Positions 36,274 through 49,399 of a DNA stretch of 64,000 nucleotides are shown piece by piece. The notes under the pieces are model-generated. The model made no database searches. It was not told where the DNA came from and saw only the letters and a list, made by a program, of their open reading frames with translations. Each line of letters begins with the position of its first letter. Positions within the stretch are counted from its first letter, which is position 1. The position numbers were made by a program, and so were the translations under genes. Source of the stretch: Escherichia coli (GTDB taxonomy: Bacteria; Pseudomonadota; Gammaproteobacteria; Enterobacterales; Enterobacteriaceae); NCBI RefSeq assembly GCF_001677475.2, contig NZ_CP015229.1; one strand, given 5' to 3'.

Positions 36274-38409
36274 TTACTCGCCCTGTTCAGCAGCCGGAGC
36301 TTCCGGTGCTGCAGCAGGTTGAGACTGCTCAGTCGCTTCTTTAATGCTCAGACGGATACGGCCCTGGCGATCAACTTCCAGAACTTTCACCGGTACTTCC
36401 TGACCCATCTGCAGGTAATCGGTCACTTTCTCAACGCGTTTGTCAGCGATCTGAGAGATGTGTACCAGACCTTCTTTACCGCCGCCGATGGCAACAAATG
36501 CGCCAAAGTCAACTATACGGGTCACTTTACCATTGTAGACGCGGCCCACTTCGATTTCTGCAGTGATCTCTTCGATACGACGAATAGCATGTTTCGCTTT
36601 CTCGCCGTCGGTCGCTGCGATTTTCACAGTACCGTCATCTTCGATTTCGATGGTGGTGCCAGTTTCTTCGGTCAGAGCACGGATAACAGAACCGCCTTTA
36701 CCGATAACGTCTTTGATCTTGTCCGGGTTGATCTTGATGGTATGGATACGCGGAGCGAACTCAGAGATATCGCCGCGCGGCGCGTTGATCGCCTGTTCCA
36801 TTACGCCCAGGATATGCAGACGCGCACCTTTAGCCTGGTTCAGTGCAACCTGCATGATCTCTTTGGTGATACCTTCAATTTTGATATCCATCTGCAATGC
36901 AGAGATACCGTCGCGGGAACCCGCAACTTTGAAGTCCATATCGCCCAGGTGATCTTCGTCGCCTAAAATGTCAGACAGTACAACGTAGTTGTCGCCTTCT
37001 TTCACCAGACCCATTGCGATACCCGCAACAGCAGCTTTGATCGGCACACCTGCGTCCATCAGCGCCAGAGACGCGCCGCACACGGAAGCCATAGAAGAAG
37101 AACCGTTGGATTCGGTGATTTCAGACACTACACGTACGGTGTACGGGAATTTGTCCATATCCGGCATGACTGCCAGCACGCCGCGCTTCGCCAGACGACC
37201 GTGACCAATTTCACGACGCTTCGGAGAACCGACCATGCCGGTTTCGCCTACGGAGTACGGAGGGAAGTTGTAGTGGAACAGGAAGGTGTCAGTACGTTCG
37301 CCCATCAGTTCATCAAGAACCTGCGCGTCACGAGCAGTACCCAGCGTTGCGGTAACCAGCGCCTGCGTTTCACCACGGGTGAACAGCGCAGAACCGTGAG
37401 TACGCGGCAGCACGCCAGTACGCACATCCAGACCACGGATCATATCTTTTTCACGACCATCGATACGCGGTTCGCCTGCCAGTACGCGGCTACGAACAAC
37501 GTTTTTCTCGATCGCGTGCAGAATTTCACCCAGTTCGTTTTCGTCCAGGGTTTCGTCTTCAGCAAGCAGCGTCGCGATGGTTTCAGATTTGATGACATCA
37601 ACCTGCGCATAACGCTCTTGTTTGTCGGTGATGCGGTAAGCATCACTCAGACGAGCTTCAGCCAGTGCAGCAACGCGCGCGTTCAGCGCTTCGTTTACCG
37701 GCTCCGGCTGCCAGTCCCAACGCGGTTTACCGGCTTCTTTCACCAGTTCATTGATGTTCTGAATAACAACCTGCTGTTGTTCATGACCGAACACTACTGC
37801 GCCCAGCATCTGGTCTTCACTCAGCAGTTCAGCTTCAGATTCAACCATCAGTACAGCGGCTTCAGTACCCGCAACAACCAGATCCAGTTTGCTCTCTTTC
37901 AGCTCGTCCTGAGTCGGGTTCAGTACGTACTGGTCATTGATGTAACCTACGCGGGCAGCACCAATCGGACCATTGAACGGAATACCAGACAGAGACAGTG
38001 CTGCGGAAGCACCAATCATCGCGACGATATCCGGGTTAACTTGCGGGTTAACAGAAACCACGGTGGCGATAACCTGAACTTCGTTGACGAAGCCTTCCGG
38101 GAACAGCGGGCGAATCGGGCGGTCAATCAGACGCGCGATCAGGGTTTCGCCTTCGCTTGGGCGGCCTTCACGACGGAAGAAGCTACCCGGGATACGACCA
38201 GCAGCGTAGGTACGCTCCTGATAGTTAACGGTCAGTGGGAAGAAGTCCTGACCTGGTTTGGCTTTTTTCTGGCCAACAACGGTAACAAATACCGCGGTGT
38301 CATCCATGCTAACCATAACAGCGGCAGTAGCCTGACGAGCCATCATGCCGGTTTCCAGAGTCACGGTGTGTTGGCCGTACTGGAATTTACGAACGATCGG
38401 ATTAAGCAA
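36274..38409 (-). CDS. pnp: Polynucleotide phosphorylase, 711 aa, UUG start
   Basis: ORF track extends to 38496; conserved N-terminus [20 protein letters not shown] begins at the in-frame TTG at 38407-38409; KH and S1 domains at the C-terminus. Confidence 0.92.
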
Positions 38410-38611
38410 TGTAATATCCTTTCTCTTTCTTAGACAGTACCTTACGGCACTGGTGTTAATACCCGATCTTCTGCGCATCCTCGCGACTAATGACAACCCT
38501 AACCCAGCTCTATGTGGGTAAAGCCTCTCATTAGCCGCGCGAACCTCTGCAACGGAAGATCATTCATAGCAACAATACATTAGTTTCCAGTGAATTGCTG
38601 CCGTCAGCTTG

Positions 38612-38635
38612 AAAAAAGGGGCCACTCAGGCCCCC
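38612..38635 (-). terminator. rpsO intrinsic terminator
   Basis: Minus strand: ggggcc-tgagt-ggcccc hairpin followed by tttttt, 20 nt after the rpsO stop. Confidence 0.8.
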
Positions 38636-38655
38636 TTTTCTGAAACTCGCAAGAA

Positions 38656-39021
<366 letters not shown>

Positions 39022-39073
39022 TTAAGCGGCAGTATTCTACTCGTAGCGACCTGTTATCGCAAGACGGTTAACA

Positions 39074-40494: not shown

Positions 40495-40572
40495 TGGCCT
40501 GATAAGACGCGCCAGCGTCGCATCAGGCAATCCATGCCGGATGCGGCGTAAACGCCTTATCCCGCATGGAAC
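40495..40572. repeat. REP/BIME element between infB and rbfA
   Basis: gcctgataagacgcgccagcgtcgcatcaggc and tgccggatgcggcgtaaacgccttatcccgcatgg. Confidence 0.85.
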
Positions 40573-45263: not shown

Positions 45264-45284
45264 TAAAAAAAGGGCCTAAAGCCC
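45264..45284 (-). terminator. Hairpin and T-run directly upstream of rimP
   Basis: Minus strand: gggctttaggccc followed by ttttttt. Confidence 0.55.
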
Positions 45285-45305
45285 AGTTATTCTGTAGTCA
45301 GATAA

Positions 45306-45328
45306 CAAAAAACCCCGATAAATCGGGG
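45306..45328 (-). terminator. Intrinsic terminator downstream of metY
   Basis: Minus strand: ccccgatttatcgggg followed by ttttttg. Confidence 0.65.
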
Positions 45329-45453
45329 CTTTATATAACTGAACCCTATAACCGCAACTGCGGTCTGGAGCACTTTCCAGAAGGATTTTTTCAAATCCCA
45401 CTACGAAGGCCGAAGTCTTCACAGTATATTTGAAAAAGGACTCTAAGGGAAAG

Positions 45454-45530
<77 letters not shown>

Positions 45531-49312: not shown

Positions 49313-49399
49313 TGGTACCGAGGACGGGACTTGAACCCGTAAGCCCTATTGGGCACTACCACCTCAAGGTAGCGTGTCTACCAATTCCACCACCTCGGC
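49313..49399 (-). tRNA. leuU: tRNA-Leu, 87 nt, long variable arm
   Basis: Reverse complement reads GCCGAGGTGGTGGAATTGGTAGACACGCTACCTTGAGGTGGTAGTGCCCAATAGGGCTTACGGGTTCAAGTCCCGTCCTCGGTACCA. Confidence 0.93.

Follow-up and report, generated by a model that had tools for sequence, protein, structure and literature searches.

The spacer between rpsO and pnp in this Escherichia coli genome is almost certainly the known rpsO–pnp intergenic control region of the species, unchanged from K-12. We consider this the best explanation overall, and nothing that we found at the locus contradicts it. The window, by which we mean the whole 64,000-nt stretch of contig NZ_CP015229.1 (assembly GCF_001677475.2) that was analyzed, carries here a pnp gene beginning with UUG, a long leader hairpin, the antisense RNA SraG, and a terminator that serves both rpsO and SraG (Table 1). 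RNase III-dependent autoregulation and mRNA decay have been studied at this locus, as a model, since the 1980s. Everything found at it has already been described for K-12, and it is in this sense ordinary and already explained. Our own analysis established the sequence identity, the structures and their conservation, and the conservation of the start codon.

The 301 nt from 38380 to 38680 are 100% identical to E. coli K-12 MG1655, and because of this identity the K-12 annotation and experiments carry over to the window. The cleavages, toeprint, transcript ends, and regulatory effects discussed below are accordingly those published for the identical K-12 sequence, and they would be expected to apply here unchanged. 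Of 5426 complete E. coli genomes, all but one (5425) have a match to a 651-nt query around the spacer; identity is at least 99% in 5409 of them, and it is 100% in O157:H7 and several further non-K-12 strains. Judged by these full matches, together with two PNPase substitutions given below, the window probably comes from a strain other than K-12. Read on the minus strand, the spacer (38410-38655) measures 246 nt, rather than the 245 nt given in a preliminary description of the sequence. It follows the rpsO open reading frame, which runs from 38925 to 38656 (−), ends with a TAA stop codon at 38658-38656, and is the counterpart of K-12 b3165 by RefSeq feature mapping. On its other side lies pnp, to which K-12 b3164 (3309033..3311168, minus strand) maps. 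The encoded PNPase is identical to that of K-12 at 709 of 711 residues (the substitutions are Q194E and T626N), and its Pfam matches (RNase_PH twice, RNase_PH_C twice, PNPase, KH_1, and S1, all above their cut-offs) give the domain order of a PNPase: RNase PH, PNPase alpha domain, RNase PH, KH, and S1.

Table 1. Features of the rpsO–pnp region, in window positions
Feature	Position	Strand	Basis
pnp CDS (711 codons + stop; polynucleotide phosphorylase)	36274..38409	−	ORF; K-12/O157 RefSeq CDS ends
pnp UUG initiation codon	38407..38409	−	Sequence; RefSeq start; 58/58 conservation; published toeprint
SraG promoter −10 box TAATAT (probable)	38412..38417	+	6 nt upstream of +1 (T at 38424)
Shine-Dalgarno sequence AAGGA	38417..38421	−	7 nt upstream of UUG
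sraG (psrO), 216-nt primary antisense transcript	38424..38639	+	K-12 b4449 mapping; Rfam; published cRT-PCR
Small second hairpin CAGUGCC-GUAA-GGUACUG, between hairpin R and the Shine-Dalgarno sequence	38435..38452	−	Fold
Long RNase III hairpin "R" of the pnp leader, 97 nt	38465..38561	−	MFE fold; covariance model R1; published cleavage
In-frame AUG, 23 codons (69 nt) upstream of UUG (decoy)	38476..38478	−	Paired in 3′ arm of hairpin R
3′ arm of invariant core (UCAUUAGUCGCG)	38482..38493	−	Near-invariant pairs with 5′ arm
5′ arm of invariant 12-bp core (CGCGGCUAAUGA)	38528..38539	−	Near-invariant pairs, columns 29-40 with 121-132
pnp promoter P2, putative −10 region (TAATGTATTGTT) and start at about 38564-38567	38564..38582	−	Inferred
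Bidirectional intrinsic terminator: T1 for rpsO (−), T for SraG (+)	38612..38640	.	Minus-strand fold; plus-strand scan
rpsO (ribosomal protein S15, 89 aa)	38656..38925	−	ORF; Pfam Ribosomal_S15, E = 1.7e-38; RefSeq
S15 autoregulatory leader of rpsO	38869..38983	−	Rfam RF00114, 117.6 bits vs gathering 39.5

The S15 leader scores above its Rfam threshold and overlaps the start of rpsO, the ATG of which lies at 38925. Upstream of this leader is a sigma-70-like site, TTGCGA-17-TAGAAT at 39034-39062 (−), which is probably the rpsO promoter P1. Elsewhere in the window, Rfam matches above the gathering score, all on the minus strand, lie at 548-924, 40496-40566, 45265-45365, 45457-45530, 49316-49399, and 56052-56173; the families are RNase P RNA, naRNA4/CssrE, the rimP leader, two tRNAs, and the greA leader. 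These are expected neighbors in the nusA-infB-rbfA-truB-rpsO-pnp region.

The terminator that the preliminary description had assigned to rpsO at 38612-38635 is present. On the minus strand it consists of a G+C stem (38634-38629 paired with 38623-38618) closed by the loop UGAGU and followed by U6 at 38617-38612, and the fold extends the stem by A-U pairs to 38640-38612. The same stem can be read in the opposite direction, GGGGCC-UGAGU-GGCCCC with U6 on the minus strand being matched on the plus strand by the stem with CUUUU; there, a terminator scan reported GGGGCCACTCAGGCCCC followed by CTTTT, ending at 38639, the annotated 3′ end of SraG. That T1 and the SraG terminator are one and the same bidirectional terminator has been described (PMC5029454). 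Of the two copies, the scan reported just the one on the plus strand, although the U run is better on the minus strand (U6); overlapping terminator sites seem to be given only once by this tool.

Folding of the minus-strand leader, which the preliminary description had proposed as a way to look for a long RNase III stem, recovers such a stem as a 97-nt hairpin, 38561-38465. The 256-nt spacer RNA has a minimum free energy (MFE) of −97.3 kcal/mol, compared with −70.5 ± 5 for 200 shuffled sequences (z = −5.4), none of which was as low. Its fold comprises four hairpins: the terminator (38640-38612), one at 38602-38568, the DNA of which overlaps the P2 promoter, the long hairpin R, and a small hairpin at 38452-38435. 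To follow hairpin R in other genomes, we used a covariance model, R1, built from 11 Enterobacteriaceae sequences and the MFE structure of the window. R1 scores 114 bits at 38563-38459 (−), has no other minus-strand match in the window, and recovers 54 other loci at E below 5e-7; when the 55 leaders are folded singly, all 55 give the same long hairpin.

The pairing of hairpin R is also maintained by compensatory change. In the alignment of hairpin R from 55 genomes, which was fitted to the structure and to that extent favors it, 94.0% of cells are standard pairs, against 37–52% when pairing partners are slid by 1–3 columns. Changes on both sides of a pair occur in 22 of 37 pairs (9–14 in the slid controls) and in 191 alignment cells (32–58 in the slid controls), and the observed values were reached by none of 500 shuffles. 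The slid controls, together with the independent single-sequence folds, argue that the covariation is real. A long, near-perfect 5′ untranslated region (UTR) hairpin with covariation, as expected of a pnp leader, is thus present, and our search found no Rfam family for the mRNA strand. The RNase III autoregulation that the preliminary description had noted for K-12 is in keeping with this hairpin, its covariation in 55 genomes, and the two-site cleavage published for it (PMC5029454). Three other treatments of the leaders were set aside: RNAalifold on a MAFFT alignment of 50 leaders (A2), which was gappy and not structure-aware, returned 2 pairs only; a MAFFT alignment restricted to the hairpins (A3) had its 3′ basal stem out of register and did not enter the counts; and whole-spacer MFE folds of the leaders all fell within one multiloop and were uninformative.

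Sequence homology of the hairpin was detected with confidence in Enterobacterales and Orbales only. Weak R1 matches (E 2e-4 to 2e-3) lie just upstream of pnp in L081 (1046-1095) and L059 (1085-1138) and, in the same E range, upstream of pnp in L054 (1083-1176), L058 (1056-1173), and L063 (1057-1175); the core alone is matched in two Vibrionaceae loci and the full model in three Pasteurellaceae loci. These matches hint that a related leader hairpin reaches beyond Enterobacterales. In the majority of 52 related leaders, the segment of the small second hairpin also folds into a hairpin (median z −2.9, with 81% below −1.5). It is kept as a structure and not as a sequence, and it lies in the part of the leader that is covered by full-length SraG and not by the short form.

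Within hairpin R, the stems on either side of a 12-bp core covary freely, while the core itself is essentially invariant across the 55 genomes (Enterobacterales and Orbales). Judged by sequence comparison, helical pairing alone would not require so strong a constraint. RNase III cuts stem-loop R in vivo and in vitro at two sites, RIII1 and RIII2, 39 and 77 nt from the P2 start (PMC5029454). From the 38-nt spacing of these published sites and the canonical 2-nt 3′ overhang in the core helix, we infer that RIII1 lies near 38529 and RIII2 near 38491, which would put both, within a few nucleotides, at the apical end of the core. The P2 start can be approached in a similar way. The pnp fragment used in vitro comprises positions 1-234 from the P2 start and ends at nucleotide 79 of the open reading frame (PMC5029454), and therefore the leader would be 155 nt long and start at 38564. 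If the start were exactly 38564, sites at 39 and 77 would not be opposite each other in the helix, unless the GGG added in vitro is counted; cleavage after 38529 and 38491 would fit a P2 start at 38567 in natural numbering or at 38564 in numbering with the added GGG. A block at P2, ACTAATGTATTGTTGC, is conserved in Enterobacteriaceae and Erwiniaceae. At the thresholds of our promoter scan, neither P2 nor the SraG promoter was found.

Why is the sequence of the hairpin core invariant, and why is a non-AUG start so widely kept? It is possible, though we think it rather unlikely, that the core CGCGGCUAAUGA/UCAUUAGUCGCG is read by its sequence beyond the shape preference of RNase III, or that the weak start codon is required for autoregulation. 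PNPase or another protein could be the reader of the core, or the double constraint of mRNA and SraG could account for it. We found neither idea, sequence reading of the core or a required weak start, stated in the papers examined, which comprise a minor part of the primary literature.

SraG lies, as the preliminary description had it, on the strand opposite pnp in this spacer. The K-12 noncoding RNA sraG (b4449, 3311183..3311398, plus strand) maps to 38424..38639 through identical sequence, so the alignment with the K-12 annotation that had been suggested is straightforward. At 38468-38639 (+), the Rfam family RF00082 scores 164.3 bits (gathering score, 50; E = 1e-31), with all 177 model positions aligned. 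The match is thus well above the gathering score, falls between rpsO and pnp, is antisense to the pnp leader, and ends at the rpsO terminator, all as expected of SraG. The alias PsrO is also confirmed (PMC6735904). The ends of SraG, which had been thought impossible to place from the sequence, are given by the RefSeq annotation and published cRT-PCR as 38424-38639 (+). The primary transcript was found by cRT-PCR to be 216 nt, its 5′ end lying 42 nt upstream of the older annotation; Northern blots and cRT-PCR with polyphosphatase treatment were used to characterize it in K-12 and N3433, and a −10 mutation near, and not overlapping, the pnp Shine-Dalgarno sequence abolishes it (PMC5029454). As a discrete RNA in the present strain, SraG would be carried over from K-12 by 100% identity. 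The assignment of the hexamer TAATAT as the SraG −10 box is our own and is probable; this hexamer is the complement of the gap between the pnp Shine-Dalgarno sequence and the UUG. Among 20 diverse loci tested, 16 have Rfam SraG matches antisense to pnp, namely all Enterobacterales loci and one of two Orbales loci. Because most of the Rfam model is a mirror of the leader hairpin and terminator, these matches do not allow us to deduce that SraG is expressed in species other than E. coli.

The start of PNPase at the TTG at 38407-38409, as the preliminary description had it, is well supported. This TTG is followed by CTT AAT CCG ATC GTT CGT AAA TTC (LNPIVRKF). RefSeq starts the K-12 protein at the same TTG, giving 711 aa (NP_417633.4), and so does the PGAP annotation of an O157:H7 genome. 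To compare start codons, species-representative genomes were scanned with PNPase residues 1-160, which gave 80 loci. All 58 Enterobacterales and Orbales sequences (57 loci and the window) have TTG as the aligned codon, each with AGG 8-10 nt before it, and the A and G columns of the Shine-Dalgarno sequence are invariant in the MAFFT alignment of 50 leaders. No alternative in-frame ATG, GTG, or TTG occurs before the upstream stop in 33 of the 58, and an in-frame stop lies at most 15 codons upstream of the TTG in 32. A toeprint that depends on 30S subunits and tRNA-fMet maps 15 nt from the pnp UUG (Fontaine et al., 2016; PMC5029454). In the remaining 23 loci, from Pasteurellales, Aeromonadales, Vibrionales, and related groups, the start is one codon downstream and is GTG in 20 and ATG in 3. 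Of the 81 gammaproteobacterial genomes sampled, only 3 use AUG to start pnp; the other 78 keep a non-AUG codon, UUG or GUG. The gene rpsO is directly upstream of pnp in no Pasteurellales locus and, in the other orders, in all loci bar one (L080, Aliagarivorans).

The preliminary description had also held that no in-frame ATG is nearby. This is correct within 22 codons on either side, the first in-frame ATG downstream being codon 22, but an in-frame ATG does exist 23 codons upstream, at 38478-38476. Upstream of the TTG, the pnp frame stays open over 51 codons and contains another in-frame TTG, 29 codons away, and the mechanical list of open reading frames extends the frame to the TTG at 38496 (740 aa). 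Could PNPase instead be made from the upstream AUG as a 734-aa protein, the UUG being an internal leucine codon? The frame is open from this ATG to the TTG, as it also is in E. albertii and two other genomes, and early K-12 annotations, presumably using the upstream AUG, gave the product as 734 aa. However, this ATG is base-paired within the 3′ arm of hairpin R, and no spacer separates it from the GAGG before it. Its sequence (GAGGAUG) is kept in 49 loci, yet only 4 of them have the ATG in frame with no stop before the TTG, which argues for conservation of the RNA and not of a start codon. The many in-frame stops just upstream of the TTG in other genomes, the published toeprint at the UUG (PMC5029454), the use of the TTG by current RefSeq, and the first Pfam RNase_PH domain, which starts at residue 15 of the 711-aa form, all point the same way. 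We therefore rejected the 734-aa form, to which we give next to no credence, and retain the UUG as the start of pnp. PDB entries that start MLNPIV reflect construct design only. An AUG within the conserved 3′ arm of a hairpin is a trap for gene callers.

Two further alternatives concern the antisense strand. The SraG match might be a mirror image of the leader hairpin and of the symmetric terminator, there being no independent antisense transcript in this strain. The Rfam model is indeed mostly the reverse complement of hairpin R and the terminator and gives a weak match of 20.5 bits on the pnp strand, R1 likewise matches both strands, the exact TAATAT hexamer occurs in only 14 of 58 related genomes, and SraG was undetected in Dickeya RNA-seq (PMC6735904). 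The window, however, is identical to K-12 through the SraG promoter, the +1 position, and the terminator, and the K-12 transcript of 216 nt was seen by both Northern blotting and cRT-PCR with polyphosphatase and was lost on mutation of the −10 region (PMC5029454), so that we regard a mere mirror image as highly improbable here. It could also be argued that the hairpin owes its conservation chiefly to SraG, on the plus strand, and not to pnp autoregulation, given that RNase III cuts SraG by itself at mirror-image sites (PMC5029454) and that the core is invariant on both arms, as expected were both strands important. Yet the G.U and U.G pairs conserved on the pnp strand (columns 26/135, 33/128, and 43/118) become A.C mismatches on the SraG strand, and R1 scores 28 bits on that strand against 114 on the sense strand. 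Because of the conserved G.U pairs and this difference in score, the comparison indicates that the helix is optimized on the mRNA strand. The hairpin also persists in genomes without the exact TAATAT hexamer, and the effect of SraG on pnp has been described as fine-tuning. Conservation chiefly for SraG is thus very unlikely, and we keep to the reading of hairpin R as an element of the pnp mRNA, with SraG as an antisense transcript opposite it.

How would these elements work together? The promoters P1 and P2 and the terminator T1 of the rpsO–pnp locus have been described (Fontaine et al., 2016; PMC5029454), and the following steps would apply here by identity with K-12. Transcripts from P1, upstream of rpsO, would stop at T1 or read through into pnp, and the second promoter, P2, would fire just upstream of the leader hairpin, such that both kinds of pnp transcript would carry the 97-nt hairpin in their 5′ UTR. 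RNase III would cut both arms of the hairpin within the invariant 12-bp core, removing the apical part, and PNPase would then degrade the short 5′ strand of the leftover duplex. Degradation of this strand would expose the message to RNase E and to translational repression, and PNPase would in this way limit its own synthesis. According to reviews and array data, inactivation of rnc raises pnp mRNA and not rpsO mRNA (PMC8708148; PMC3082872). Translation would begin at the UUG, served by the AAGGA sequence 7 nt upstream. RNase III-independent translational autorepression of pnp, and binding of CsrA at the Shine-Dalgarno sequence, have been reported as well (PMC5029454).

SraG would add an antisense layer, one described at pnp in 2016 (PMC5029454). 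It would start 15 nt upstream of the UUG on the opposite strand, from a promoter with its −10 box between the pnp Shine-Dalgarno sequence and the start codon, span the whole leader in antisense, and end at the hairpin that terminates rpsO. Once paired with the leader, SraG would block 30S binding and create a new RNase III site. Full-length SraG abolishes the 30S toeprint at the pnp UUG (PMC5029454).

The practical value of the analysis lies in annotation. The TTG is the right start of pnp and the in-frame ATG 69 nt upstream is not, and exact window coordinates are now available for sraG and the leader elements. The comparison further shows a UUG start and a leader hairpin common to Enterobacterales and Orbales.

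The closest known system is the K-12 rpsO-sraG-pnp locus itself (b3165, b4449, b3164; NC_000913.3 3309033-3311684), which has the same sequence over 38380-38680 and the same gene order, strands, lengths, UUG start, terminator, hairpin, and SraG coordinates; it differs in that PNPase here carries the substitutions Q194E and T626N. The Rfam family RF00082 is matched over its full length, in the rpsO–pnp spacer and antisense to pnp, but represents the older 174-nt form of SraG; the mapped primary transcript has its 5′ end at 38424, 42 nt upstream of that form. More distant parallels are the rnc-era leader and the RNase III control of pnp in Streptomyces, Borrelia, S. pyogenes, and Campylobacter (PMC8708148). 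These systems share with the present one a long 5′ UTR hairpin that is cut by RNase III, destabilizing the message. The locus analyzed here differs from them in that PNPase would degrade the strand left over from the cut duplex and in that an antisense RNA overlaps the leader.
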